From Escherichia coli (GTDB lineage: Bacteria; Pseudomonadota; Gammaproteobacteria; Enterobacterales; Enterobacteriaceae), in assembly GCF_003018235.1 (NCBI RefSeq), contig NZ_CP027437.1: a stretch of 64,000 bases of DNA. One strand, 5' to 3'. This document shows, piece after piece, positions 44,629 to 57,726 of the stretch. Under the pieces are notes generated by a model. The model saw only the letters and a list, made by a program, of their open reading frames with translations. It was not told the origin of the DNA and searched no databases. A program made the translations under genes and the position numbers. Numbering within the stretch: position 1 is the stretch's first letter; each line of letters begins with the position of its first letter.

Positions 44629-47220
44629 ATGCATCAATCTGGTTCTGTTTCTCTTTGTCGTTCCGCAATATCTGTTCTGGTGGCTACAGCGTTATATTCA
44701 CCCATAGCATTGGCATCAACAGTTGAGTATGGTGAGACAGTTGATGGTGTTGTCCTGGAAAAAGATATCCAGCTGGTTTATGGGACCGCCAATAATACGA
44801 AAATCAATCCTGGCGGAGAACAGCATATTAAAGAATTTGGTATAAGTAGTAATACTGAAATTAACGGCGGGTATCAGTACATTGAAATGAATGGCACCGC
44901 AGAATACTCAGTATTAAATGATGGTTATCAAATTGTTCAAATGGGTGGTGCGGCAAACCAGACTACCCTCAATAATGGTGTGCTACAGGTTTATGGCGCA
45001 GCGAATGATACTACCATTAAAGGCGGGCGCTTAATTATTGAAAAAGATGGGATTACCGTCTTTGCCGCTATCGAAAAGGGAGGATTACTGGAGGTTAAAG
45101 AGGGGGGGTTAGCATTTGCGGTAGATCAGAAAGCCGGCGGTGCTATTAAAACAACCACGCGGGCCATGGAGGTATTCGGAACAAACCGTCTCGGTCAGTT
45201 CGATATCAAGGATGGTATTGCTAATAATATGTTGTTGGAAAACGGCGGAAGTTTGCGAGTTGAAGAAAATGACTTCGCTTATAATACCACTGTGGATAAT
45301 GGCGGCTTACTGGAGGTTATGGATGGCGGGACTGCAACTGGCGTTGATAAAAAAGCAGGCGGAAAATTAATTGTCTCAACGAATGCGCTGGAAGTGAGTG
45401 GTACAAACAGTAAAGGCCAATTTAGTATAAAAGATGGTGTGTCCAAAAATTATGAACTGGATGATGGTTCCGGGCTCATTGTTATGGAGGACACGCAGGC
45501 CATTGACACTATCCTTGATGAGCATGCCACTATGCAATCGCTGGGAAAGGATACTGGTACGAGAGTGCAGGCAAATGCGGTATATGATCTCGGTCGATCA
45601 GATCAGAATGGAAGTATCACGTATTCCTCTAAAGCCATCTCTGAAAATATGGTTATCAACAATGGCCGCGCTAATGTCTGGGCTGGCACAATGGTTAACG
45701 TTTCAGTCAGAGGGAATGATGGCATTCTTGAGGTCATGAAGCCGCAAATAAATTATGCACCCGCTATGTTGGTGGGTAAGGTAGTGGTTTCTGAGGGCGC
45801 TTCTTTTAGAACGCATGGTGCCGTGGATACCAGCAAAGCGGATGTTTCGCTCGAAAATAGCGCATGGACCATCATTGCCGATATCACTACGACGAACCAA
45901 AACACTCGCCTCAACTTAGCCAACCTTGCGATGTCTGGCGCAAATGTGATTATGATGGCTGAGCCAGTGACTCGTTCATCTGTGACGGCAAGTGCGGAAA
46001 ATTTCACTACGTTGACCACCAATACCCTATCGGGAAACGGCAATTTTTATATGCGTACCGATATGGCTAATCATCAGAGCGATCAGCTCAACGTCACCGG
46101 TCAGGCAACAGGTGATTTCAAAATATTCGTTACGGACACCGGTGCCAGCCCGGCAGCAGGTGATAGCCTTACACTGGTAACAACGGGCGGCGGTGATGCT
46201 GCATTTACGTTGGGCAATGCCGGAGGCGTTGTTGATATCGGTACGTATGAATATACCTTGCTGGATAATGGCAACCATAGCTGGAGCCTCGCAGAGAATC
46301 GCGCGCAAATTACCCCTTCAACCACTGATGTGCTGAATATGGCGGCAGCACAACCGCTGGTATTTGATGCAGAACTGGACACCGTGCGTGAGCGTATTGG
46401 TAGCGTAAAAGGCGTTAATTACGATACGGCGATGTGGAGTTCGGCAATTAACACCCGCAACAACGTGACCACTGATGCGGGAGCTGGCTTTGAGCAAACA
46501 TTGACCGGGCTGACGCTCGGTATCGATAGCCGTTTCTCCCGTGAAGAAAGCAGCACAATTCGCGGCTTGTTCTTTGGTTACTCTCATTCTGATATTGGTT
46601 TTGATCGCGGCGGCAAAGGTAATATCGATAGCTATACCCTGGGGGCTTATGCTGGTTGGGAGCATCAGAACGGTGCCTATGTTGATGGGGTGGTGAAAGT
46701 TGACCGTTTTGCCAACACTATCCATGGCAAGATGAGTAATGGGGCAACAGCGTTTGGCGATTACAGTAGTAACGGCGCGGGTGCTCATGTCGAGAGCGGG
46801 TTCCGTTGGGTTGACGGATTGTGGAGTGTTAGACCCTATCTGGCCTTTACCGGCTTTACCACAGATGGTCAGGACTACACGTTATCAAACGGCATGCGCG
46901 CGGATGTGGGAAATACCCGCATATTACGCGCTGAAGCGGGAACAGCGGTAAGCTATCACATGGACCTGCAAAACGGTACGACGCTGGAACCCTGGCTGAA
47001 AGCCGCCGTACGTCAGGAATACGCCGATTCTAACCAGGTGAAAGTTAATGACGATGGCAAATTTAATAATGATGTGGCTGGAACCCGTGGCGTTTATCAG
47101 GCTGGGATAAGGTCATCGTTTACCCCGACGTTAAGCGGTCATTTGTCTGTCAGCTATGGCAATGGCGCAGGGGTAGAATCACCGTGGAATACTCAGGCGG
47201 GTGTGGTCTGGTCGTTCTGA
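44629..47220 (+). CDS. yejO: Intact autotransporter YejO (passenger domain plus C-terminal beta-barrel)
   Basis: 863 aa with a signal peptide, repetitive passenger domain and autotransporter beta-domain ending ...GVVWSF. It is not IS-disrupted as in K-12. Confidence 0.8.
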   Translation: MHQSGSVSLCRSAISVLVATALYSPIALASTVEYGETVDGVVLEKDIQLVYGTANNTKINPGGEQHIKEFGISSNTEINGGYQYIEMNGTAEYSVLNDGYQIVQMGGAANQTTLNNGVLQVYGAANDTTIKGGRLIIEKDGITVFAAIEKGGLLEVKEGGLAFAVDQKAGGAIKTTTRAMEVFGTNRLGQFDIKDGIANNMLLENGGSLRVEENDFAYNTTVDNGGLLEVMDGGTATGVDKKAGGKLIVSTNALEVSGTNSKGQFSIKDGVSKNYELDDGSGLIVMEDTQAIDTILDEHATMQSLGKDTGTRVQANAVYDLGRSDQNGSITYSSKAISENMVINNGRANVWAGTMVNVSVRGNDGILEVMKPQINYAPAMLVGKVVVSEGASFRTHGAVDTSKADVSLENSAWTIIADITTTNQNTRLNLANLAMSGANVIMMAEPVTRSSVTASAENFTTLTTNTLSGNGNFYMRTDMANHQSDQLNVTGQATGDFKIFVTDTGASPAAGDSLTLVTTGGGDAAFTLGNAGGVVDIGTYEYTLLDNGNHSWSLAENRAQITPSTTDVLNMAAAQPLVFDAELDTVRERIGSVKGVNYDTAMWSSAINTRNNVTTDAGAGFEQTLTGLTLGIDSRFSREESSTIRGLFFGYSHSDIGFDRGGKGNIDSYTLGAYAGWEHQNGAYVDGVVKVDRFANTIHGKMSNGATAFGDYSSNGAGAHVESGFRWVDGLWSVRPYLAFTGFTTDGQDYTLSNGMRADVGNTRILRAEAGTAVSYHMDLQNGTTLEPWLKAAVRQEYADSNQVKVNDDGKFNNDVAGTRGVYQAGIRSSFTPTLSGHLSVSYGNGAGVESPWNTQAGVVWSF

Positions 47221-47314: not shown

Positions 47315-47377
47315 GGATTTTTGCACGAGAGTAGTTTAATTGAGTATGTAACTACATGATTTAAAATAATTTGTCTA

Positions 47378-47410
47378 ATTCAACTTTTAAACCGTATAAC
47401 CAAACGTATA
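47378..47410. promoter_or_regulatory. Left-arm integrase binding repeats (cgtataaccaa / cgtataactaa)
   Basis: The same 11-mer family as the four copies between int and proL at 57450-57530. Confidence 0.55.
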
Positions 47411-47620
47411 ACTAAAATGATTTGCTGAAAAAGTGTACAATTTAAAGACAGATTTTCCCGGGGGTTATAAAACTGCGAAAATTTCGTAGTTATCCCGATA
47501 CGGGGATCACCATATCGGGATTGGATACCTGGCTTTTTTTCCGGTTAACTCTTAATCATCTGCGTGATCATAATGATGATTCAGCCAGCGCAATTTTGCG
47601 TTATCGGGAATATCAGCAAG

Positions 47621-47902
47621 TTACCGCCGTAACCGCTCCGGCTTCTTCCAGTGGTAGGTAATTTTTTCTTTCTCCCGATACATCTCCACGCGGCGCTTGT
47701 AGGCCAGCATTTCAAGAACGCGGATCCGTATGTCGCGCATATCCACATCATTAAGCTGGATACCATCACGGCGCATCACCTCAGCAACCACACACGCATA
47801 ATTTTCGGCGGTCACGCAGTCCGGCTGCGTAGCCTGTTCGTCAGCCTGCTGGCTGATTCCGGCAACTCGGCGGATTAATCGCAGTAGTTCGGCTTCTGTC
47901 AT
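47621..47902 (-). CDS. Hypothetical 93-aa island cargo protein
   Basis: ORF only; I recognise no domain. It is the leftmost gene of the island, downstream of the capsid gene. Confidence 0.4.
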   Translation of the reverse strand: MTEAELLRLIRRVAGISQQADEQATQPDCVTAENYACVVAEVMRRDGIQLNDVDMRDIRIRVLEMLAYKRRVEMYREKEKITYHWKKPERLRR

Positions 47903-48043
47903 TGTGCCCCCTCGCGCTGGTTAAGAAAACAAGCTCAGATTTTTTGTAAAGAATCTGTCACGCTAAAAGATGTCGAACAAAAAACAATCACCTTCATCAT
48001 CTTTTTTACATAAAAACAATTAAAAACAATAATTTACATACAT

Positions 48044-48141
48044 GATGATGATGGCGATAAAATCATAAAAATGCGCTTTTTTCCGCGCCGACCCGCCCCG
48101 TGGACAGGCCCACCCCACCAGGAGGACCCGCAAAAAAGGCG
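48044..48141. repeat. Copy 1 of a roughly 100-bp island-internal direct repeat (TGAT-N9-ATCA dyad ... ccgcgccgacccgccccgtgga...accaggaggaccc)
   Basis: About 80% identical to 50594..50690. Each copy sits just past the terminator of one minus-strand gene and upstream of the next. Confidence 0.7.
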
Positions 48142-48169
48142 GCATATTTGCCGCCCTGTAAACTGTGTA

Positions 48170-50065
48170 TCAGCCGGAAGCCGTACCGCTCGATTTGACC
48201 ATGCCGCGATAGTCCAGCGCGGCCACACCGGCATCAATACGAACCTTCCAGGCGACACCGTCAACGATGAAGCCTTCCTGCTGTTCAAGGTAAGGCTCGT
48301 CATTACCATCAAGATAAGCCACCTCGATTGTGTCCGTTCCCTGTGCTGAAAGCATGTACCATTGATTCACACTAACATCATCCAGACGAGGATCGACAAT
48401 AATATCCAGTAGCTTGTGATACGGGTTAAATATGCCGCTGTTTTTATCGGCCCCGAAAGGTGCGGTTGAATTAATCATTTGCAACGCGCGATCTTCCAGT
48501 GCTGCCGGAACTAACAGGAATTTAGGTGCAATGTTCAGCACCTCGCCGTTTTTATCTTTCTGTATGCGCATAGCGTGACGTGCTGCACTAAGCCCCGGCG
48601 TCGTCATGCCAAGATCGATAAGGTTGTTGTGTTTTTTATCAAACAAGGCCACACCATCAGACAGCTTGCCGTTTCCTGTAAGTACCAGATTAACCAGATT
48701 GCCAACCGTTCTGGCTGCTGCACGCCCCATAGCCATTGGCACGGTAGACAACTGATCAAGGTCATCATTGATTATCGCCTGGCGGGTAATACTGAAAATA
48801 TTCCCGTATGTAGCCAGCGCGATTGGCTCACCGCGATCGCTGGTGGTGATGTATTTATATTCTGCCCCTTCCGGCACTTTGTTTAATGTTGAAAAACCAT
48901 TCAGGCCAACGCGGCGGGCTTCACGGAAGTTTGACAGAGAACCTTTTTTAGTCCACTGGCGGAATGTTTCGCCGCTGTGCTCCCAGCCTGCCAGCACTGA
49001 TTTTTCAGCGCCACCAGCCAGGATGTAAGTAAAATCGCTGCTGCTGTGAGTGAATGCCGCATTAACAATCTGCGAACGCGTGCTGTAGCTGCCTGTGCTT
49101 ATGCCACGATGGGTTAATGATGCCTGTGCCATATCGAAAAGGCTCATCATGGCGTAAGGATTGCCGCGTTCGGCCTGTTCGTGACCAAGACGTGCGTTAA
49201 GCCCCTGACGCATGGCATCGCCGGTTATGTTGCCGTTATCCGTATACGCGTAGTAAAGATTTGCGGGGGTGTTTTTGTTGGTGGGTGTCGATTCCTTGCC
49301 CATAGCCAATAAAAGGCGTTCGCGCGCATCCTCAACGCTACAACCTGCGTCTGCCAGGCAGTTAATAGCCAGGTCGTTATATTTCCCGTTGAACGTGCCA
49401 AACAATTCGCGAATGCCGTTTAGTCGTTCCTGTTCGCCGCTGGCTTTGTTCTGGTTGATCATGTTTTTGATACTTTCCGGCATATTTGAAAAATCTCCGA
49501 TTCGTTTTGATTCAATTCTGGCCATTGCTGTAATCGCGGGTATAACCTCATCTGCGAAGCCGTTAGCCTTACACTCATTGCCATCCATCCAGGTTTCCGC
49601 CTCCATCATGGCGGTGATTTCCTGTTTGCTTTTTCCCGTTCTTCCGGCGTAGGTTTCCGCCATCGTGTCGCCCAGCTTGTCCATCAGGTCAGCAAAGCGG
49701 CGAACGTCGCCCGACACGCCAGAAGTAACACCACGGGGGGCATGTATCATCATCATTGCGTTAGCGGGCATCACGATGTGATCGCCACACATGGCAATAA
49801 ACGAGGCCATAGAAGCCGCTATGCCTTCAATGTGTACGATTTTTTTCGCCGGATGATTTTTCAGGGCGTTATAGATAGCCAGCCCCTGAAAGATGTCGCC
49901 GCCTGGTGAATGGATACGCAAATGGATTTCAGACACGTCACCACACGCGCTTATCTGGTCGGTTAATGTTGACGCCTGTACACCGTAACCGCCTATTTCG
50001 TCATAAATGCGAACGTGAAGGGCGTCGGCTTTTGCCTGTATGCTGTACCAGGATTTCATAGCCAT
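48170..50065 (-). CDS. Prohead protease (ClpP/S49-like) fused to an HK97-fold major capsid protein
   Basis: 631 aa. The N-terminal roughly 200 aa have the ClpP-type motif HSPGGDIF and a Ser/His context. The C-terminal roughly 400 aa resemble HK97-family major capsid proteins. A terminator hairpin ggcggcaaatatgccgcc+T6 follows the stop. Confidence 0.7.
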   Translation of the reverse strand: MAMKSWYSIQAKADALHVRIYDEIGGYGVQASTLTDQISACGDVSEIHLRIHSPGGDIFQGLAIYNALKNHPAKKIVHIEGIAASMASFIAMCGDHIVMPANAMMMIHAPRGVTSGVSGDVRRFADLMDKLGDTMAETYAGRTGKSKQEITAMMEAETWMDGNECKANGFADEVIPAITAMARIESKRIGDFSNMPESIKNMINQNKASGEQERLNGIRELFGTFNGKYNDLAINCLADAGCSVEDARERLLLAMGKESTPTNKNTPANLYYAYTDNGNITGDAMRQGLNARLGHEQAERGNPYAMMSLFDMAQASLTHRGISTGSYSTRSQIVNAAFTHSSSDFTYILAGGAEKSVLAGWEHSGETFRQWTKKGSLSNFREARRVGLNGFSTLNKVPEGAEYKYITTSDRGEPIALATYGNIFSITRQAIINDDLDQLSTVPMAMGRAAARTVGNLVNLVLTGNGKLSDGVALFDKKHNNLIDLGMTTPGLSAARHAMRIQKDKNGEVLNIAPKFLLVPAALEDRALQMINSTAPFGADKNSGIFNPYHKLLDIIVDPRLDDVSVNQWYMLSAQGTDTIEVAYLDGNDEPYLEQQEGFIVDGVAWKVRIDAGVAALDYRGMVKSSGTASG

Positions 50066-50250
50066 GCCCCTAACGTGTGCCCATACCAGTACTCTACCGC
50101 GCTGCGTGCAATTTGCCCTTTGGTCGGTACTGGCATTCCTGGGTGATTTTCCCTTATGAACTGCTGATAGCGTTCAATCTTCTCCATCGTTCCGGCGTCT
50201 ATGTGCACTGTTGCGCTTTTATCCGGTTTTCTGGTGTTGTTCTCTGGCAT
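50056..50250 (-). CDS. Hypothetical 64-aa protein translationally coupled to the capsid gene (MPENNTRKPD start)
   Basis: A strong GGAGG RBS lies 7 nt upstream of the ATG at 50250. It overlaps the capsid start by 10 nt. The six-frame ORF extends to 50283. Confidence 0.45.
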   Translation of the reverse strand: MPENNTRKPDKSATVHIDAGTMEKIERYQQFIRENHPGMPVPTKGQIARSAVEYWYGHTLGAWL

Positions 50251-50406
50251 AAATCCGCCTCCGTTTTGATTAACGGGCATCATTATTGATCGATAAAAGT
50301 AATAGATAAATCATTTTCTACCTAAAAATCAGATTATGATTTTTCTGATTATTTCGAGAAAAGCAAATCATTTGACGCATTATTGCTATTTTGGCAATAT
50401 TAAGTC

Positions 50407-50482
50407 TCATTCATTCCGGTAGTAGAAGTTCGTTTGTCGTACTAAAGCGCCTCCGGTAGCACCATCGGGGGCGCTTTTTTTG
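50407..50482 (+). ncRNA. Candidate small RNA, antisense to the leader of the capsid operon
   Basis: TTGACG-17 bp-CAATAT promoter-like element at 50372-50400. A GC-rich hairpin gcgcctccggtagcaccatcgggggcgc followed by ttttttt lies at 50447-50482. There is no ORF in this 425-bp gap. Confidence 0.35.
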
Positions 50483-50593
50483 TGCCTGTTTTTTTTGTAA
50501 ATATTTTCGGGAATGTTCCAGTGGTGAACAAAAAACAACCATAATCGACACTGAAATTTTTATCAGCCAAATATATCAATAAGTTATGTTAGT

Positions 50594-50690
50594 GGTGATG
50601 GTGCCATAAAAATCAAAAAATGCGCCTTTTTCCGCGCCGACCCGCCCCGTGGATGCCCCCACCAACCAGGAGGACCCACAAAAAAGCCGG
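50594..50690. repeat. Copy 2 of the roughly 100-bp direct repeat (TGAT-N12-ATCA dyad ... ccgcgccgacccgccccgtgga...accaggaggaccc)
   Basis: See copy 1. It is located after the perC-like terminator and 340 bp upstream of the capsid operon. Confidence 0.7.
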
Positions 50691-50708
50691 ATTGCTCCGG
50701 CTGTGTGC

Positions 50709-50984
50709 TCACTTCTGCGGGTAGTTGCGCCATACTGCTTTACCAATACCAGCTATCCCCATTTGTTTTTCAGTGCGATTAACTGACCTTTTCAGAGCGC
50801 CTAAATCATCCGGCGGCTCCGGTGGCCTCTGTGCCTTCCTGGAACATTCCTGCCGTCGCATTGCCACCTGTGCGCGTTCCTTGTCTGTCTCCACCAGCAT
50901 CATCACTTCACCCCATCGCGCCGCCGCCCTCCTGTAAAATCCTTTCGCCTCGAGTTCCTCCGCTATACGGTCATGTACCATCAT
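50709..50984 (-). CDS. PerC-family transcriptional activator-like protein
   Basis: 91 aa with the N-terminal motif VHDRIAEELEAKGFYRRAAARW, typical of PerC/Pch-like proteins. A terminator hairpin gccggagcaatccggc+T6 follows the stop. Confidence 0.55.
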   Translation of the reverse strand: MMVHDRIAEELEAKGFYRRAAARWGEVMMLVETDKERAQVAMRRQECSRKAQRPPEPPDDLGALKRSVNRTEKQMGIAGIGKAVWRNYPQK

Positions 50985-51994
50985 TCACCACCTCCCGCAG
51001 ATGGCGATAAGCTGGCTTTGCCTCCAAGTGGATTAAACCTTATCGCCTCTGTCAGAAAATCCGGCGCAAAATGCGCGTAAACCATTGTCTGTTGTATGCT
51101 CGCGTGCCCCAGTATCCTTTGCAGTGTGATTATATTCCCCCCGTTCATCATGAAATGTGTCGCGAATGTGTGCCGTAATACGTGGGTGGCCTGGCCTTTT
51201 GGTAAGTCCGGTTTTACTGACTTGATGACCTCCCTGAACTCCAGATAATCCACATCAAACAACTGTCCCTTTTTACCTCTCGTTACAAGTTCCAGAACGT
51301 CATCAGACACCGGAACAGCTCGCGCCCGTCCGTTCTTCGTCTCCGTAAACATTACCTTGTTACTGACTATATTTTCCCGTCGTAGCGTCGATGACTCCCC
51401 ATAACGCGCCCCCGTCGAAAGACACAAAACAGCCAGCGCGAGACAGTCGCCTTTGGCAATATTCAGTAAATGATTAACCTCATCATCACCAAGAAAACTC
51501 ATAGCCTTGTTTGGTGCTTTCAGCTTGCGTAATCCACTCAAAGGGTTTTCACCGTGATACATACCGCATTCGATTAGCCCCCTGAACATTCCTGATATAA
51601 CCGACAAATCACGGTTAACAGTCAACGGACTAAGGCCGCATCCCAGCTTGTCGGCTCTGTATTCCATGAGCATTGCGCGGGTTATGTTGCAGATTCGTGG
51701 ATCCCCCATTTCACGGATAACCTTCATCATGCGCATAAACGATTGTTCGCCGTATTCCTCCGATCTTCCGATAAACTCCATCCATAAGTTAGCCAGATCA
51801 GATAACAGGCGAATATCTGCGGCGCGTGACTCCCAGGGCTTATTATGACAATGAAGCAGTATGTATTTTTCGTAATCACGGGCTTTTGTCTGCGAGGGAA
51901 AAATCTTTCTTATCCGTCGCCCGTAAGCGCCATTTGGCCTTACGTCAACCAGCCAGCGACCATCCTCACACTTCCTTATCGCCATGCTCCACAC
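50981..51994 (-). CDS. Internal tyrosine recombinase (phage integrase family)
   Basis: 337 aa with a C-terminal catalytic region HVLRHTFAT...HASIQQTMVYAHF (H-x-x-R ... Y). Overlapping start and stop with flanking genes. Confidence 0.75.
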   Translation of the reverse strand: MWSMAIRKCEDGRWLVDVRPNGAYGRRIRKIFPSQTKARDYEKYILLHCHNKPWESRAADIRLLSDLANLWMEFIGRSEEYGEQSFMRMMKVIREMGDPRICNITRAMLMEYRADKLGCGLSPLTVNRDLSVISGMFRGLIECGMYHGENPLSGLRKLKAPNKAMSFLGDDEVNHLLNIAKGDCLALAVLCLSTGARYGESSTLRRENIVSNKVMFTETKNGRARAVPVSDDVLELVTRGKKGQLFDVDYLEFREVIKSVKPDLPKGQATHVLRHTFATHFMMNGGNIITLQRILGHASIQQTMVYAHFAPDFLTEAIRFNPLGGKASLSPSAGGGE

Positions 51995-52226
51995 CCTTAA
52001 CGTTGATGGTTGTTACCTGTTCCGCTTCGGCTATCTCCCGTTCGGTCAGCGTGGCAAAGTTTGCCGCCGCTGTGGTCATGAATGCGCTTATCAGTTCGGG
52101 ATGTGCTTTCGCGTATCCTTCTCCCGTGTTGCGGTCTATCGTTCTGATTGCCACCTTTAAGGCGTGCTCTGTCATGTCTAATGCGCGATATTTTGGCGCT
52201 GCCTTATCTCTGGTTTTTCTGGTCAT
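51966..52226 (-). CDS. Hypothetical 86-aa protein
   Basis: ORF between the iterons and the internal recombinase; it overlaps the recombinase start. Confidence 0.4.
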   Translation of the reverse strand: MTRKTRDKAAPKYRALDMTEHALKVAIRTIDRNTGEGYAKAHPELISAFMTTAAANFATLTEREIAEAEQVTTINVKGVEHGDKEV

Positions 52227-52234
52227 TCCTCACC

Positions 52235-52430
52235 ACTCCTCACTTTTACTCCTCACTTTTTGTTATTCCTCGCCTGCTCCTCACCTGTTTTTTTTGCTTC
52301 TGTAATGCGTTGTTTTGCAATGTATTTTTTATTCCTCACTTTTTGACCTATATACAGGTGAGAAAGTGAGGAGTAGCGCTGATTTTTTGTTAAATTACTC
52401 GCTACCCTCACTTTTACTCCTCACTTTTTA
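52235..52430. repeat. Iteron array (CCTCACTTTTT, at least 6 direct copies and 1 inverted) - candidate origin of replication
   Basis: Copies at 52237, 52249, 52280 (variant), 52333, 52405, 52417 and an inverted gtgaggag at 52361. They lie immediately 3' of the rep gene, AT-rich, as in SaPI/PICI origins. Confidence 0.7.
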
Positions 52431-53828
52431 CAGTGGGTGCACATCATCGCCATCAATAGCGATTACGCCGTCACCTTCCAGCTTGTACAGCCAGCGCCGG
52501 AAATTTTTCATCTCATACCCCAGCTTTTTCATATCGTCGCGGAGAAGGGCGATAGTGCACGCCTCCCCGTGTGCTGTCCTCGTTCTGATGCACTGCCATA
52601 GCGCGGCGTGATTCTCCGTCTTGTTTCCGGCCTCCTCGATGCGCTCCAGTTCAACGGGTGGGCGCGGTTTATCCACAACCACCAGCGACGTGATTAACTC
52701 CCCGTCAGCGTCGGTAAAAAGCTCCACCACACGTAAATCGTATGCGGCCTCTTTCAGTTCCTCCGCGTCCTTCATTTTGGTGCAGGAGATAACCAGGGCT
52801 TCACAGTCCGCACCTTCACGGCGAATACGGTATTCAGCGTCCAGAGATGCACGAAATGCACTGGAACCACGCGCCCCTTTCGTCTCATCCTTGCCGGAAT
52901 GGTGAACCACCAGCACCGTGGCCCCTGTGCGTCGTTTCAGTTCGTCACATCCACGGATAAACGCCCCCATGTCACGGGAATCATTTTCATCATTGCCGCC
53001 AAAGCAACGCGCCAGCGTATCCAGAATAATCATGCGTACAGGTTTACCCGTTTCCCGCTCCACCTGGCTGGCTGCGATAACCATTTCATCAACATCAAGC
53101 GGGGCCGCCGGAAAAATGGGACGGTTTACCAGATACAGATTTTTCACCTGCTCACCGTGCACAACCTCCCAGGCTTTTACACGACGTGGAACGCCGATAC
53201 CGCCTTCACCAACCACATAGAGAACCGCACCATGTGCAACCCTGCGGCCTCCCCAGTAGCGACCTGTGGAAACGTGACACGCCCACGATCCGGCAAGGAA
53301 TGATTTATAGGAACCGCTCGCCCCGTATATGCTGCATAGCGATACCGCCGGAATAATTCCCTTAACCACGTAATCAAGTTGCGTGTCGTATCCGGCAGAA
53401 CCAATGCTCATCGGTAGTTTGGTTTTCCGCTGGTGGCTTTTTTCTTCCTCCTGCGCTTTACCGCGCTCCCGTTCCAGATATTCGCGCCAGTTCTCCCGCT
53501 TCTGGCTGTGCATCCCATCTGGGTAATAATTCGCATCCCGTACACCTGCTGCCGCCAGCTTTTGCGCTATGGCATTAATGCTCGATGGCTTGATATGGCC
53601 TGCCCTGTACAGACGGACGCAATAGCGGCCCTCGTCGATGATTCTCAGGTCTGGCAGTTCAGCCAGTTGATCATCAGCCAGCACAACGGGAGGCACATTA
53701 TCGCCAGCAAGTCGCCCGTCCTGCTCCTGCCACTGCTTCGCGTGTGCCCAGGCATCACTACCCGCAAAAATAATGACTTCTGTCATTTTGTCGTAAGGCT
53801 GTTTTCTTAAGTTCGGTGCGCTCTTCAT
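52428..53828 (-). CDS. Replication protein: RecA/DnaB-fold (RepA-like) AAA ATPase with an N-terminal extension
   Basis: 466 aa with Walker A GASGSYKS and Walker B MIILDTLAR, consistent with the RepA/primase-associated helicase-loader family of satellite elements. Confidence 0.7.
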   Translation of the reverse strand: MKSAPNLRKQPYDKMTEVIIFAGSDAWAHAKQWQEQDGRLAGDNVPPVVLADDQLAELPDLRIIDEGRYCVRLYRAGHIKPSSINAIAQKLAAAGVRDANYYPDGMHSQKRENWREYLERERGKAQEEEKSHQRKTKLPMSIGSAGYDTQLDYVVKGIIPAVSLCSIYGASGSYKSFLAGSWACHVSTGRYWGGRRVAHGAVLYVVGEGGIGVPRRVKAWEVVHGEQVKNLYLVNRPIFPAAPLDVDEMVIAASQVERETGKPVRMIILDTLARCFGGNDENDSRDMGAFIRGCDELKRRTGATVLVVHHSGKDETKGARGSSAFRASLDAEYRIRREGADCEALVISCTKMKDAEELKEAAYDLRVVELFTDADGELITSLVVVDKPRPPVELERIEEAGNKTENHAALWQCIRTRTAHGEACTIALLRDDMKKLGYEMKNFRRWLYKLEGDGVIAIDGDDVHPL

Positions 53829-54121
53829 TTGCCTTTTCTCCCTCTGGCTATCTGGTTGCGTAACTCCGCTATGTGCTGTGCTATCGTTCCTGAATCATCA
53901 CAGCAATATTTCTTTTCCTTCAGAGGCGTAAAATCCTTCTCAAATTGCAACCGGAACATCACATTCTCAAATAAATATCCAGAACGTATAAAAGTAATAA
54001 ATGTGCTGTTAACTCTCGTCACTGTCACATAATTACCGTCACCATCCAGATAAATATCACCTTTAATAATTTCAGGGCGAGGAAGGCCGCTGGCAGTTGC
54101 GCCAGTATTTTTCTTTTTCAT
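53825..54121 (-). CDS. Hypothetical 98-aa protein
   Basis: ORF overlapping the rep start by 4 nt (coupled). No recognisable domain. Confidence 0.45.
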   Translation of the reverse strand: MKKKNTGATASGLPRPEIIKGDIYLDGDGNYVTVTRVNSTFITFIRSGYLFENVMFRLQFEKDFTPLKEKKYCCDDSGTIAQHIAELRNQIARGRKGK

Positions 54122-54137
54122 GGTATTTACCTTTCTG

Positions 54138-54419
54138 TTATTCGTCGTTCTGAATAAAACGTTGTTCTCTTATTTCAGAAAGTATCCTGTAAACATTCTT
54201 ATCACTTACCACTTGATGATAATCATCATCCTCAATAAAACACATCAGCGCCTTATTACGGATATATATTTCTCTGGAAAGAAACTGTATCGCCGCGACT
54301 GCCCTTTCTTCTGTAATTCCGTTCATTGACTCACGTTCAATAATAATATTAAGTGCGGCGGATGCGTCTTCCAGTTCAATAAGGTAAGCAGCGAGGTTAT
54401 TTTTTATTCCATTAGACAT
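54138..54419 (-). CDS. Hypothetical 93-aa acidic protein
   Basis: ORF in the operon upstream of rep. Confidence 0.45.
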   Translation of the reverse strand: MSNGIKNNLAAYLIELEDASAALNIIIERESMNGITEERAVAAIQFLSREIYIRNKALMCFIEDDDYHQVVSDKNVYRILSEIREQRFIQNDE

Positions 54420-54615
54420 GGCTCACCCCCTGACAGATTTTTGCAGCGAATACAGCAACACAACCGGACGGGCAAAGGTTACGCGCTTCGCGTTCCGTCC
54501 AGGCGGTTACGTGGATGATTTGATGGTCTGACGCGCCAAAGGCAATAAAGCGCCAGGTGAATTTATTCAGGTTGTGCGAGTCCCGCCCTTGCGGGTGTGT
54601 GATATGATTTAACAT
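54412..54615 (-). CDS. Hypothetical 67-aa protein (MLNHITHPQGRD...); the real gene inside the 353-aa six-frame ORF
   Basis: ATG at 54615 with a GAGGT RBS 6 nt upstream. The rest of the 54412..55473 ORF runs antisense through a promoter region and other genes and is implausible. Confidence 0.5.
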   Translation of the reverse strand: MLNHITHPQGRDSHNLNKFTWRFIAFGASDHQIIHVTAWTEREARNLCPSGCVAVFAAKICQGVSHV

Positions 54616-54712
54616 AGCTACCTCGATACTATTGCTATCGTTGGTGGTTAGAAGCCTGTGGGTGTTAGCGGCACCTACGGGCTTCGCAGTTTCTGAACCT
54701 TGAACACTCAAG

Positions 54713-54794
54713 GTGTAAGACACAACATAAAACAACAGTGTCTTACACGTCAACCCTTTAAAATAGTTTTTTTTCGTGTATATTGTCTTACACC
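54713..54794. promoter_or_regulatory. Divergent promoter/operator region with three GTGTCTTACAC sites (one inverted)
   Basis: gtgtaagacac at 54713, gtgtcttacac at 54739 and tgtcttacacc at 54784. They lie between the minus-strand 67-aa gene and the plus-strand 61-aa gene. Confidence 0.6.
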
Positions 54795-54814
54795 AAAAAC
54801 ATGAGGGGTTAGAC

Positions 54815-55000
54815 ATGGCAACAGGTCCAAAGAATGCAAAATCACAATCTGTAACTGCACGTATTGCCCATGAAATTATTGAAGGCATGGAAAACGTGAA
54901 AGAAGATGGCGAAAGTACAGGGCAGTTTATAAGCGCAGCCATGCGTGGCGAGATCAAACGCCGCCAACGGAAAAAAACCAAAGAATCAGATAAGGAATAA
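54815..55000 (+). CDS. Small 61-aa basic protein (MATGPKNAKSQS...), candidate repressor/regulator of the switch region
   Basis: ATG at 54815 preceded by a GAGGGG RBS. The six-frame ORF begins at an upstream GTG at 54776, inside operator site 3. Confidence 0.45.
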   Translation: MATGPKNAKSQSVTARIAHEIIEGMENVKEDGESTGQFISAAMRGEIKRRQRKKTKESDKE

Positions 55001-55003
55001 CTT

Positions 55004-55147
55004 ATGCAGCAAGTACTATACTGGCTTGGCTCTTTGTTTTTATTTGCTTTCCTCCTGGGAAATTGCATCAGCAATGAACACGTCAGTAATGAGCGTGTAT
55101 GCAGGAGTGATGAAAAAAAGATTCCACGCCTCATATACAATGATTGA
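55004..55147 (+). CDS. Candidate 47-aa hydrophobic peptide (MQQVLYWLGSLFLFAFLLGNC...)
   Basis: ATG 4 nt after the upstream stop, with an AAGGAA RBS. It has a single predicted TM helix. It is below the 60-aa ORF cut-off, and a competing 68-aa ORF lies in another frame at 54945..55151. Confidence 0.25.
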   Translation: MQQVLYWLGSLFLFAFLLGNCISNEHVSNERVCRSDEKKIPRLIYND

Positions 55148-55477
55148 TTAGCTCGTGCAGCACTAAAGCAACGCAAGGCCAAAGAGCAGGAATAGCCCAC
55201 CAGCAAGCCAGCGCACTGATCACATTGCCCACCAGCCGCAAATGTGGCATTGTTGGCTATGCTCATGCGTTGGGGATAACGTGTAGCTTGTGTCGAGGGG
55301 CCACCGTAGCGGGTGGCCTTTGTTTTGCCTGTTATCCGGCAATTGTGGCGCTTCGCCACACGGTTGATATAATTCCCCTGCACTGATCCATTTTTTTCGC
55401 AGCAGGTTAATTGTTCGCAAGGGCGCTCCGGCAACGGGGCGCTTTTTGTTATGTTCATCGCGTTACGCCTCACACCA

Positions 55478-55684
55478 TTACGCAGCCGTTCCGCGCGCTT
55501 CTTCCTCGCGCTCTTTCAGCCAGGCCAGCACTTCATCTTCATACCAGCCAACACGACGCAGACCGATTTTGAAGCCTTTCGGGAATTTTCCGGCGTTGAT
55601 CATGTCCTGTAGCGAACTGTCCGCCTTGATGCGAAGAATATTTTTTACTTCCTGACGGGTGAGTATTTTTCTGATTACTTCCAT
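55478..55684 (-). CDS. alpA: AlpA-family phage/island transcriptional regulator (MerR-like HTH)
   Basis: 68 aa; ...LRIKADSSLQDMINAGKFPKGFKIGLRRVGWYEDEVLAWL... matches the AlpA/Xis-like HTH pattern. Confidence 0.7.
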   Translation of the reverse strand: MEVIRKILTRQEVKNILRIKADSSLQDMINAGKFPKGFKIGLRRVGWYEDEVLAWLKEREEEARGTAA

Positions 55685-55724
55685 CGTGTTTTACCTCATT
55701 AATCCGGCGTGTTCCGGTGATAAA

Positions 55725-55790
55725 TACGGTAAAACAGGGAAGGGCGGGAAAAACAGTACCTACCGTTTTAAAACGGTACCCACTGTTTTT
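55725..55790. promoter_or_regulatory. alpA upstream operator: 40-bp near-perfect palindrome centred on TACCGTTTTAAAACGGTA, plus an extra ACGGTAAAAC half-site
   Basis: aaacagtacc-taccgttttaaaacggta-cccactgtttt at 55750-55790; an additional half-site lies at 55727-55737. Confidence 0.6.
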
Positions 55791-55821
55791 TATCTCGTTG
55801 ATTGTGCTTCTTTTTGCAAAA

Positions 55822-55850
55822 AATAGCGACCGCAAGGGGCCGCTATTGTG
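55822..55850 (-). terminator. Rho-independent terminator between the 77-aa gene and alpA
   Basis: Minus strand reads atagcggccccttgcggtcgctat followed by tttttgc. Confidence 0.5.
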
Positions 55851-55851
55851 A

Positions 55852-56085
55852 TTACCGTCTCCACTTCTTAGGTCGCCCACCGCATTTAAGGCTGGTGGGC
55901 CTCAGCACCTTGTCGATGCTTTCAGCCAGATTTTTCGATACGCCACGTGAGCGCAAAAAACTGACTACCTCGTGTTTTGTGGGGGCTGTTGATTTGTCTT
56001 CCGGATCGTACGTTGACCAGAATTCACGGCTTACCAGTACAGCCAGTTCAAGCCCGTCACAAGTGCCATTGATGTTTGTTTGCAT
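55852..56085 (-). CDS. Hypothetical 77-aa protein (possible excision/regulatory factor)
   Basis: ORF directly downstream of int, with a basic C-terminus CGGRPKKWRR. Confidence 0.45.
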   Translation of the reverse strand: MQTNINGTCDGLELAVLVSREFWSTYDPEDKSTAPTKHEVVSFLRSRGVSKNLAESIDKVLRPTSLKCGGRPKKWRR

Positions 56086-56189
56086 GTTGATGCTCTCTTC
56101 ATGTTTGGCGGCCTTTGGGGGTAACGAGATAATGCAACTATACGACGGTTTTACATGGTTTTCATCGTTTTTGCTGGTTTTGTGTACAG

Positions 56190-57449
56190 TTATACCGCAC
56201 GGATACCCCTTTTACCACCAGCAAGGGTAACGCCCGTTGCCGCTGCCTCAACAAATTCCCCCCACCAGCGCATCAGCACAATGCGTTTTTCCAGGTAGTT
56301 ACTGCGGTTGTAGGCTCTCCTTACTTCGTTGGTGTCCACGTGGGCCAGTGCGGCCTCGATTACGTCCGGCTCGAATCCTTCCTCGTTTGCTGCTGTGCTG
56401 AATATGGCGCGTAATCCATGAGACACCAGCACGCCAGCGAACCCCATGCGCCGTAATGCTGCGTTGGCGGTCTGGCTGTTCATCGGCTGGCGTGGGTCTT
56501 TCAGGCTCGGGAAAACATGCTCGCGGTGGTGGCTGATTGGTTTCATGGCCTCCAGCACTGCCATAGCCTGACCGCAAAGCGGGATAACGTGATCACGTCG
56601 CATCTTCATACGTCCGGCTGGTATCGTCCATTGTTGCTCGTCCAGGTCGATTTCTTCCCAGCGTGCTGACGATGCCTCAACAGGACGGGTTACGGTAAGT
56701 AGCTGCCACTCAATCAGTAGTCTTGTCTGCCGTTCTGTTGCCGATACGGATAAAGCCCGCATAAGCTCCGGTAGCTGCTCGGGGCGGATTGTTGGCATAT
56801 GTTTTTTTACTGGGGTGGGGAAGGCCTTGCGCACGTTTGTAGCCGGATTGGTATCAATCATCCCGCTGTTGGCGGCGTAATCCATAACTTCATTGATGCG
56901 CTGTAAAACCCGCTTGAGCGTTTCCAGGTTGCCGCGTTCCTTGATGGGGGTGAGTATCTCCACGAACCTGCGGGCGGTGAGGGTGTCTACTGGCGTGTCA
57001 CCGATGAACGGGAATACATATTTCTCCAGCGATCTCCATATGTCTTTAATTGTGTTGGGTGCAAGATTCTGGCTGATTTTCACCTGGTACCATGCCGCTG
57101 CTACATTTTCGAACGTGTTGCCCTGTCTCCGTTCCTCTGCTTCGCGTTTTCGTCGCTCGTGTTCCTGTGGGTCGGTGCCGGAAGAAATTAACGTCCTGTA
57201 CTCGCTACGGCGTTTTCTGGCATCAGCCAAGGAAACATCATCAAGCGATCCAAAACTCAGCAATATTCTTTTTTTGTCCAATGGGCGGTAGTAGGAAAAT
57301 CGCCAGAGTTTTGATCCAGACGGTTTGACCAGGAGAAAAAGCCCTCCGCCGTCCTGTAGGGTGTACTCCTTTTCCGCTGGTCTGGCTGCTTTGATCTGCA
57401 CTGTGGTTAATGGGGTTGTTTTTCTCGCCATATGTCTATGATTCCACAC
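56190..57449 (-). CDS. int: P4-type tyrosine integrase (N-terminal DUF4102 arm-binding domain)
   Basis: 419 aa. The N-terminus LTTVQIKAARPAEKEYTLQDGGGLFLLVKPSGSKLWRFSY is characteristic of P4/CP4-57-type integrases. C-terminal HGLR...Y catalytic residues. Adjacent to the tRNA. Confidence 0.85.
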   Translation of the reverse strand: MWNHRHMARKTTPLTTVQIKAARPAEKEYTLQDGGGLFLLVKPSGSKLWRFSYYRPLDKKRILLSFGSLDDVSLADARKRRSEYRTLISSGTDPQEHERRKREAEERRQGNTFENVAAAWYQVKISQNLAPNTIKDIWRSLEKYVFPFIGDTPVDTLTARRFVEILTPIKERGNLETLKRVLQRINEVMDYAANSGMIDTNPATNVRKAFPTPVKKHMPTIRPEQLPELMRALSVSATERQTRLLIEWQLLTVTRPVEASSARWEEIDLDEQQWTIPAGRMKMRRDHVIPLCGQAMAVLEAMKPISHHREHVFPSLKDPRQPMNSQTANAALRRMGFAGVLVSHGLRAIFSTAANEEGFEPDVIEAALAHVDTNEVRRAYNRSNYLEKRIVLMRWWGEFVEAAATGVTLAGGKRGIRAV

Positions 57450-57530
57450 GAAAAAATGGGGTTTTAGTTATACGGCTTTAGTTATACGTCAGCCCGTATA
57501 ACTAAACGTATAACTAAAAAATCCGGCTGA
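57450..57530. promoter_or_regulatory. attR-proximal integrase arm-type sites (TTAGTTATACG x2, CGTATAACTAA x2)
   Basis: Four 11-mers in alternating orientation between the int start and proL. The same motif occurs at the left end of the island. Confidence 0.6.
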
Positions 57531-57649
57531 TAGCTTATAAATCCGGTGATGTCCGGTGACTAAAAACCATAAAAAAACCCGCCAATCAAGTGATTAGCGG
57601 GCTTTTCGTGTCTGAAACTGTTATTTCCGGTGGTATCCGGTGGGCGATT

Positions 57650-57726
57650 TGGTCGGCACGAGAGGATTTGAACCTCCGACCCCCGACACCCCATGACGGT
57701 GCGCTACCAGGCTGCGCTACGTGCCG
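57650..57726 (-). tRNA. proL: tRNA-Pro (GGG)
   Basis: Plus strand is the exact reverse complement of CGGCACGUAGCGCAGCCUGGUAGCGCACCGUCAUGGGGUGUCGGGGGUCGGAGGUUCAAAUCCUCUCGUGCCGACCA. Confidence 0.95.

Follow-up and report, generated by a model that had tools for sequence, protein, structure and literature searches.

A probable cos-type phage-inducible chromosomal island of the EcCICFT073 lineage at the proL tRNA gene of Escherichia coli

A segment of some 10 kb that separates yejO from proL and yejM in the chromosome of an Escherichia coli strain (contig NZ_CP027437.1 of assembly GCF_003018235.1) raises the question of what kind of mobile element has settled there, whether it is still able to move, and whether it carries anything new. 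The stretch analysed comprises 64,000 nucleotides and is referred to below as the window. A preliminary description, made from the letters of the sequence, regarded the segment as a phage satellite, either a phage-inducible chromosomal island (PICI) or a P4-like satellite, and as the most probable place for an undescribed system. The evidence assembled here makes it very likely that this DNA represents an intact PICI of cos type, belonging to the Gram-negative EcCICFT073 lineage, whose own P4-family integrase would have inserted it at the 3' end of proL.

The first part of the answer comes from the borders. Alignment of the K-12 proL-yejO intergenic region with both borders in the window, the comparison that the preliminary description had called for, places the extra DNA at 47332-57649, that is, 10,318 bp directly at the proL 3' end; the insertion of 10.3 kb at the tRNA end is therefore confirmed, and the limits originally given for it (47315-57649) are correct to within 17 bp. 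On the yejO side the collinearity with K-12 ends at ...GGGATTTT, and on the other side it resumes at the tRNA 3' end. The terminal 15-mer of the tRNA gene, TGGTCGGCACGAGAG (57650-57664), reappears at 47322-47331 in a shortened form, TGCACGAGAG, and an 8-nt block, CACGAGAG, is undamaged in both att sites and presumably contains the crossover region. A position of the crossover to the left of the deleted bases (TTTGGTC) was considered and dropped, since in one of the sister islands (L023) approximately 35 nt are deleted up to that same boundary before CACGAGAG, and the “attR damage” known from the literature accounts for the pattern.

The same borders carry the binding sites expected of the enzyme. 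The arm repeat TTAGTTATACG, with at most one mismatch, occurs six times in the 64 kb and every copy lies at the island ends, whereas 0.62 copies would be expected by chance and six were reached in none of 100 shuffles, so that the matching arm repeats noticed earlier at both borders are well founded. The gene beside the att site had been taken for an arm-binding integrase of P4 type, and its domains agree with this (Table 1).

The features that define Gram-negative PICIs can be followed along the rest of the insert. A tyrosine integrase lies at one end, with a specific att site and flanking direct repeats; alpA is located downstream of int and is read in one direction with the genes of replication and of the late module, the backbone genes being all on the minus strand; and the island has its own initiator, a RepA helicase and not a protein of the primase type, with an iteron origin directly 3' of it. 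Two copies of a putative cos site serve as candidate packaging signals, and one of them (copy A) shares, over 105 nt, approximately 90% identity with the cos of phages of the Shiga toxin (Stx)/mEp460 type. The size of the element (10.3 kb) fits the 10–15 kb expected of PICIs, and no tail, lysis, portal or large-terminase genes were found in the open reading frame (ORF), Pfam, PHROGs and NCBIfam scans or in the RefSeq annotation of a sister copy. Every testable defining feature is present, with the exception of Rpp. When the island is compared by components with the five-component PICI model of SatelliteFinder (de Sousa 2023, PMC10085698), it has the integrase, alpA, replicase and capsid and lacks terS, a combination that would correspond to Type B, although the RepA-type replicase may not match the pri-rep profile of that program.

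The kinship with EcCICFT073, the reference Gram-negative cos PICI (Fillol-Salom 2018, PMC6092414; 2019, PMC6739421), which was located in E. coli CFT073 at NC_004431 1377930-1388654, is seen in the order of the genes. Both elements have, one after the other, int, alpA, a divergent YlcI/YnfO gene and a small ORF, an Icd-like gene, small ORFs, DUF4222, a replication protein, an iteron origin, a protein of 86 amino acids (aa), one variable gene, PerC, a small ORF, the capsid gene(s) and a 93-aa protein, and this synteny upholds the assignment to satellites of the PICI kind. The regulatory block is 93% identical in nucleotide sequence over 236 nt, and the identity of the proteins is 66% for YlcI, 62% for the Icd-like protein, 35% for DUF4222, 66% for the first 122 aa of Rep, 87.5% for the 86-aa protein, 69% for PerC and 87% for the terminal 93-aa protein (35–89% for the backbone overall).

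The two elements differ in several places. The EcCICFT073 integrase is only 24% identical, and its att site is beside roxA in CFT073 instead of at proL; replication relies on a RepA helicase with GTGAGG iterons here and on a primase with GGTAGA iterons there; the variable slot holds a second integrase (Int2) here and SSB there; and the late module consists of a single ClpP/capsid fusion here, while in EcCICFT073 it includes a lambda-type capsid protein, a decoration protein, a 137-aa protein and RppA. The four PICI zones defined by Tommasini, Mageeney and Williams (2023, PMC10111431), namely integration, Bro, replication and late, fit the island, and PICIs that bear a CLP_protease gene, as well as the capture of genes in the “Late zone”, have been described by these authors. 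All the unusual features of the island, that is, the late-zone ClpP/capsid gene, the extra late-zone integrase, the damage of the displaced tRNA-Pro fragment and the presence of two cos sites, have a published precedent.

Table 1. Features of the proL island and its borders, in window coordinates.
Feature	Position	Strand	Evidence or remarks
Distal att core (attR, prophage convention)	47322-47331		TGCACGAGAG = last 15 nt of proL minus GTCGG
Two arm-type integrase-binding repeats, P' arm	47393-47415	-	TTGGTTATACG and TTAGTTATACG; kept in sister islands
93-aa conserved PICI protein, last gene of the island	47621-47902	-	phrog_1561, E = 1e-54; 87% identical to last EcCICFT073 gene; no PDB match
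cos copy A (putative)	48054-48142	-	cosQ-like GGGTCCTCCTGG, cosN-like GGGCGGGTCGGC, proximal cosB; closest to helper-type phage cos; repeat families D1/D7
ClpP-like prohead protease/major capsid fusion (631 aa)	48170-50065	-	Pfam CLP_protease + Phage_capsid_4; NCBIfam NF045540, 881 bits vs cut-off 475
Small protein (64-75 aa)	50056-50283	-	phrog_4934, E = 2.5e-48; overlaps capsid gene start by 10 nt
cos copy B (putative)	50603-50690	-	same orientation as copy A, 2,549 bp away; diverges from A on cosB side
PerC-family regulator	50709-50984	-	PF06069, E = 6.5e-39; 69% identical to EcCICFT073 PerC
Int2, P2-family tyrosine recombinase (334 aa)	50981-51985	-	Int_N + Phage_integrase domains; absent from preliminary description
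86-aa conserved PICI protein	51966-52226	-	phrog_1231, E = 7e-48; 87.5% identical to EcCICFT073 gene
Replication origin	52236-52426		six AAGTGAGGAG iterons (one inverted) around A-rich spacer, directly 3' of repA
RepA-family helicase/initiator (AAA_25)	52428-53828	-	AAA_25, E = 5e-42
DUF4222 protein	53825-54121	-	profile match; EcCICFT073 homologue
93-aa hypothetical protein, variable “Bro” zone	54138-54419	-	no family match in Pfam, PHROGs, NCBIfam scans
Icd-like protein (67 aa)	54412-54615	-	NF033153, E = 1e-16; phrog_6196
YlcI/YnfO-family protein, divergent	54815-55000	+	NF041551, E = 3.8e-18; 66% identical to EcCICFT073 homologue
Small divergent ORF (80 aa)	55144-55386	+	within 236-nt block 93% identical to EcCICFT073
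AlpA-family regulator, predicted master activator	55478-55684	-	PF05930, E = 4.5e-8
42-nt palindrome, candidate operator	55749-55790		inverted repeat I6, 86% complementary, no spacer
77-aa hypothetical protein, int-alpA accessory slot	55852-56085	-	no family or defence match
Main integrase, P4-family tyrosine recombinase with arm-binding domain	56190-57449	-	Arm-DNA-bind_3, Phage_int_M, Phage_integrase domains
Four arm-type repeats, P arm	57464-57517		TTAGTTATACG; two direct, two inverted
proL tRNA-Pro(GGG)	57650-57726	-	ARAGORN + Rfam; 3' 15 nt (57650-57664) = proximal att core

Part of this inventory could also be found in a different kind of satellite. Like the island, P4 lies at a tRNA gene and encodes a tyrosine integrase of the arm-binding kind as well as an AlpA/Vis-like protein, and its packaging depends on the cos of a helper, as that of the island is predicted to; the closeness of Int2 to the integrases of P2-like phages may likewise be counted in favour of a P4-like satellite exploiting a P2-type helper, the alternative kept in the preliminary description. 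This origin is nevertheless scarcely credible, since int and alpA are the only parts of the seven-component P4-like core (PMC10085698) present here, whereas psu, delta, sid, epsilon and alpha primase were not found in the Pfam, PHROGs and NCBIfam scans. In addition, the cos of the island is lambdoid and not of P2 type, no P2-like phage being among the 21 phage records that it matched, and the capsid gene is of the lambdoid mEp460 type and stands in an order of genes shared with EcCICFT073.

The fact that the island encodes its own protease/major capsid protein could suggest, on the other hand, a capsid-forming PICI (cfPICI), or the relic of a lambdoid prophage in which nothing but a head gene has survived. 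However, the portal, head-tail adaptor, connector, TerL, TerS and HNH genes that distinguish cfPICIs (PMC10085698) were not found in the ORF, Pfam and PHROGs scans, in which the protease/capsid fusion stands alone, and a prophage origin is contradicted by the lack of lysis, tail, repressor or Q/N-type genes in a backbone that is PICI-specific. Both possibilities are considered extremely improbable, and the insert is treated below as a cos-type PICI related to EcCICFT073.

The replication module illustrates how such an island combines a conserved framework with exchangeable parts. The iteron AAGTGAGGAG has 10 matches in the whole window, as opposed to 2.35 expected, and 10 were reached in none of 100 shuffles; six of these copies, together with the AAA_25 match of the preceding gene, bear out the earlier reading of a rep ATPase followed by iterons. 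Across relatives the type of iteron co-varies with the type of Rep. Despite the difference in iterons, it is the N-terminus of an otherwise unrelated protein, the EcCICFT073 primase (L005 4642-5016), that the first 122 aa of RepA resemble at the identity given above, and this common segment may be an adaptor or regulatory domain. On the inverted iterons of the origin (52353-52430, minus strand) there is also a sub-threshold Rfam match to mir-7578 (30 bits, gathering score 60), which is a chance match to the hairpin that inverted iterons can form.

The key to packaging lies in the two cos sites, both of which were overlooked in the preliminary description. They were detected by a repeat finder as a direct repeat of approximately 90 nt with 84–85% identity, whose copies follow immediately on perC and on the capsid gene, respectively. 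The layout consists of a terminator hairpin, a cosQ-like GGGTCCTCCTGG, ACG, a 12-nt cosN-like GGGCGGGTCGGC and then GCGGAAAAA..GCGCATTTTT, an architecture that is the same as that of the EcCICFT073 cos, with a cosN unlike that of lambda. EcCICFT073 also has two cos sites in its late zone, and these are functional (PMC6092414); they flank rppA, at different gene intervals from those of the island, are inverted instead of direct, and contain the lambda cosN GGGCGGCGACCT in place of GGGCGGGTCGGC.

Comparison of copy A with 50,697 phage records gave matches to 21 phages, the best of which (88–93% identity over 95–106 nt) are the Stx-converting lambdoid phages Stx2_95, VT1-Sakai, 1720a-02 and CP-1639, while in mEp460 the match is to the right end of the record. 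The site in Stx2_95 is flanked by the Rz endopeptidase gene and terS, as is canonical for a lambdoid cos and as is also the case in VT1-Sakai and 1720a-02, and the alignment spans cosQ, cosN and approximately 90 nt of the cosB side. The capsid gene has similar relatives. The preliminary description had recognised a single capsid-type gene, and there is indeed only one, but its product is to be corrected to a fusion of a ClpP-like prohead protease with a major capsid protein, whose best phage matches (tblastn) are the head protease-capsid fusions of those Stx phages and mEp460 (51% identity over 99% of the length). A small ORF stands beside the capsid gene in EcCICFT073 and in Salmonella PICIs, in a position that matches that of the small ORF found here.

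Because the island copies the cosQ-cosN-cosB arrangement of these phages and carries a diverged copy of their protease/capsid fusion, its predicted helpers are lambdoid siphophages with a head of the mEp460/Stx-phage (VT1-Sakai, Stx2_95) type. EcCICFT073 mirrors lambda/phi80 and the island mirrors the mEp460/Stx head-packaging type, meaning that the exchange has involved cos and capsid gene together. With regard to Rpp, the protein by which TerS of the helper is redirected to an island cos, there is no tblastn match to EcCICFT073 rppA (c1503) and no ORF of 140–155 aa, and the 75-, 86- and 93-aa proteins match nothing in the PDB; Rpp is a feature of PICIs that depend on lambda/phi80 and not a requirement of the family. 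Since copy A resembles the helper on the cosB side too and the searches for Rpp were negative, the simplest route of packaging appears to be one in which the island mimics the helper cos directly.

The capsid fusion most probably assembles together with the capsid protein of the helper or takes its place, and it perhaps makes heads of the size of the island, for example on the helper portal, although this is speculative. SaPIbov5 Ccm, cited in PMC6092414, is also a satellite homologue of the major capsid protein of a cos-type helper, and makes small capsids; it is Gram-positive and unrelated in sequence, whereas the protein of the island is fused to a ClpP-type protease. If the heads were of full size, and this is equally speculative, four copies of 10.3 kb would fit a helper genome of approximately 44–46 kb.

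The roles of AlpA, int, pri-rep and cos have been shown experimentally for EcCICFT073 (PMC6092414, PMC6739421), and by analogy a life cycle can be proposed for the island. A factor of a lambdoid helper would activate alpA, and AlpA, the predicted master activator (a role taken from EcCICFT073, PMC6092414), would switch on the leftward operon; the integrase would then excise the island via the CACGAGAG core, the RepA helicase would replicate it from the AAGTGAGGAG iteron origin, and the terminase of the helper would cut the cos site or sites, so that island DNA would enter particles by means of the portal, tail and lysis functions of the helper.

Several points weigh against this interpretation. 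Induction, the identity of the helper and packaging are carried over by homology, and the reference PICIs have a “pri-rep” where the island has a replicase of RepA type. The cosN differs by one base in length from that of Stx2_95 (GGGCGGGTCGGC as opposed to GGGCGGGCGGC), which means that cutting by the terminase is not guaranteed, and in the absence of an Rpp homologue the packaging-redirection step known for EcCICFT073 is either missing or carried out differently. Deletion of the EcCICFT073 capsid and decoration genes had no effect on transfer or interference (PMC6092414), and therefore the capsid fusion may be dispensable. Finally, the shortened flank of the distal att site could impair excision if the integrase needs it.

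The last point leads to the question of whether the island is still alive. The distal copy of the tRNA end lacks five of its 15 nt in the window, and it is shortened in all nine island copies examined, always ending at the same base before CACGAGAG and by varying amounts: one base in L019 and L022, two in L001/L020, L014 and L024, four in L013, five in L021 as in the window, and approximately 35 in L023. This could be the mark of a dead remnant, that is, of a formerly mobile PICI that became fixed at proL and can no longer excise owing to its damaged distal att site, and the preliminary description had proposed that att repeats degraded in all relatives would mean exactly that. Such a criterion would mislead here, because deletions of variable length in the displaced tRNA-Pro fragment, starting from one fixed position of the acceptor stem, have been described as the “tRNA attR damage” of PICIs and attributed to integration (PMC10111431); the shortening matches this damage and is therefore not evidence of decay. 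In random decay the deletions would not be expected to vary and yet share an end base. Moreover, all the ORFs of the island are intact, the arm sites are kept at both ends, and CACGAGAG has been preserved in the two att sites.

Further evidence comes from the backgrounds in which the island is found. In L023 it has only 2 differences in 10,318 bp (99.98% identity), while the flanks are 97.75% (ccm-narP) and 98.84% (yejM-yejK) identical, a divergence of 1.2–2.3%; in this strain yejO is truncated and the distal scar is different. In L022 the island is 99.57% identical and the flanks 98.65–98.9%. A near-identical island in a diverged background, with a different scar at the junction, points to recent transfer as judged from these alignments, and a dead remnant is quite unlikely. 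What had been claimed at the outset, one intact and excision-competent unit, holds for the ORFs, the arms at both ends and the appearance of recent mobility, whereas excision is a prediction from homology. It may be added that excision should leave proL with a damaged acceptor stem, and that an addiction-like effect has been proposed in the literature.

Related islands are frequent at this site. A yejO-side proL junction of this type is present in 295 of 5,426 complete E. coli genomes, Nissle 1917 included, and a PICI-type ClpP/capsid gene with at least 80% nucleotide identity in 142 genomes. SCU-111 is the one near-identical complete genome (98.8% identity), with the element at the same locus and the same list of genes in the RefSeq annotation. 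The sister proL PICIs of strains MDP9-27 (NZ_CP146515, L013) and 08-00022 (NZ_CP013662, L014) have the same type of integrase, the arm repeats, the shortened distal core, the ClpP/capsid fusion and PerC, at approximately 87% nucleotide identity over 61–73% of a query span that takes in some 0.7 kb of flank, and they differ in the “Bro” zone. The former shares RepA and is without Int2; the latter has a replicon of primase type and an extra PerC. The neighbouring yejO is intact in the window, as an autotransporter ORF of 863 aa (44629-47220, plus strand), whereas in K-12 it is a pseudogene split by IS5; it is truncated beside the island in SCU-111, L023 and L024, and has an internal stop in two other strains with proL islands.

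The gene that sets the island apart from its best-known relative is Int2, which occupies, as a gene-sized cassette, the late-zone slot that holds SSB in EcCICFT073. It is absent from the otherwise collinear island of MDP9-27, with respect to which it is exactly a gene-sized insertion between the 86-aa gene and perC, and it overlaps the neighbouring genes at its start and stop codons, flanked by neither non-coding DNA nor att-like sequence. The catalytic residues R194, K217, H268, R271, H294 and Y303 are invariant across relatives, and the enzyme is predicted to be catalytically intact. Its nearest phage homologues are the integrases of P2-like myophages (57% identity), and relatives at 59–61% identity adjoin C, Cox and GpA in true P2-like prophages. 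A 66%-identical homologue is found in the same place of the late zone, upstream of the ClpP/capsid fusion, in Salmonella PICIs that have other outer integrases and lie at two chromosomal sites, and a relative at 60% follows the primase of another Salmonella satellite. The exact protein is recorded in 84 assembly blocks, and the six places listed in detail are, all of them, this island at proL. Two of the Salmonella PICIs with the same Int2 and ClpP/capsid late module (L007 and L008, 1446-12248) lie between the ugp transporter permease genes and ugpC and end with a toxin gene of the hok/gef type, and a related one (L009) adjoins mug-rpoD.

Extra integrases in the late zone of PICIs have been described, and they are said to resemble the integrases of helper prophages (PMC10111431); in the present case Int2 belongs to the P2 family, while cos and capsid indicate a lambdoid helper. 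To judge from its sequence and setting, Int2 is a captured P2-family integrase expressed from the late operon. That PICIs have domesticated it for a new job in trans is a more doubtful idea, which is put forward tentatively; it is supported by the catalytic intactness of the enzyme, by the overlap of its frame with those of its late-operon neighbours, by the 66% identity kept in the Salmonella PICI slot, and by the lack of an adjacent att site belonging to it (when the att-proximal DNA of two P2-like prophages was compared with the island by short-word BLAST, only chance matches appeared). Such a job could be the resolution of packaged island multimers to monomers after injection, or an action on the att sites of resident P2-like prophages and P4-like satellites.

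Int2 and the small proteins are also the candidates for another proposal, according to which the satellite is mainly selected for a cargo, so far undescribed, that acts against phages or interferes with the helper. Defence hotspots are known to occur in E. coli PICIs and P4-like satellites (PMC9122126), and the island has five small proteins without an assigned function, besides an unexplained Int2 that is kept in Salmonella PICIs. Nevertheless, PADLOC-DB 2.0 gave no match for the 10 island proteins scanned, which include all the unannotated ones of the minus strand and leave out int, alpA, perC, YlcI and the 80-aa divergent ORF. Backbone PHROG families account for three of the small proteins (of 75, 86 and, at the end of the island, 93 aa) out of five, and the last two of these are also found in EcCICFT073; the slot between int and alpA contains a mere 77-aa ORF, as opposed to genes of 211–293 aa in Salmonella relatives; and Int2 is a standard integrase with its catalytic residues in place. 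An Rfam scan of the island (E <= 0.1) returned only the tRNA and the chance match to a miRNA model, and no immunity RNA of the C4/isrK/CI type. For all genes but Int2 there is a counterpart in synteny, either in EcCICFT073 or among the sister proL islands, which makes the locus a poor candidate for the most probable place of an undescribed system, and the expected defence or interference cargo is reduced to a P2-family integrase, the sole variable cargo. Selection for such a cargo is very unlikely, and the island is a real but ordinary member of the known PICI family, with no recognisable new defence system.

The regulatory zone deserves a few remarks. AlpA and the PerC-like activator, both of which had been named in the preliminary description, are borne out by their profile matches. 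The palindrome located approximately 65 nt upstream of alpA, with the arms AAAAACAGTACCTACCGTTTT and AAAACGGTACCCACTGTTTTT, is a candidate operator for an inducer encoded by the helper. An ORF of 353 aa (54412-55473) was rejected as a gene, as it overlaps the Icd-like gene and two conserved genes of the opposite strand. The zone between alpA and DUF4222 differs among islands with an identical Int2: at the place of the 67-aa Icd-like gene (54412-54615), L024 (6961-7575) encodes a Phage_ASH protein of 204 aa, in agreement with the dynamic character attributed to the “Bro zone” of PICIs. At the scale of the window, GC skew is negative over most of 48001-56000, where the minus strand carries all the large genes, but positive in the core DNA on either side, and positions 1-44000 contain what appear to be ordinary E. 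coli core genes, with no other island.

Taken in the context of the family, the finding is mainly a gain in annotation, for proL emerges as a common PICI site in E. coli, occupied in approximately 5% of complete genomes, among them that of Nissle 1917. The recurrence of a P2-type integrase in the late operon and the systematic damage of the displaced tRNA are small questions, neither of which amounts to a new class of system. The island also provides an example of the modular evolution of PICIs, in which a different presumed type of helper goes with a joint change of cos site and capsid gene. It is predicted that lambdoid phages of the mEp460/Stx type would mobilise the island without Rpp, and this would bear on the flow of genes around Shiga-toxin phages.

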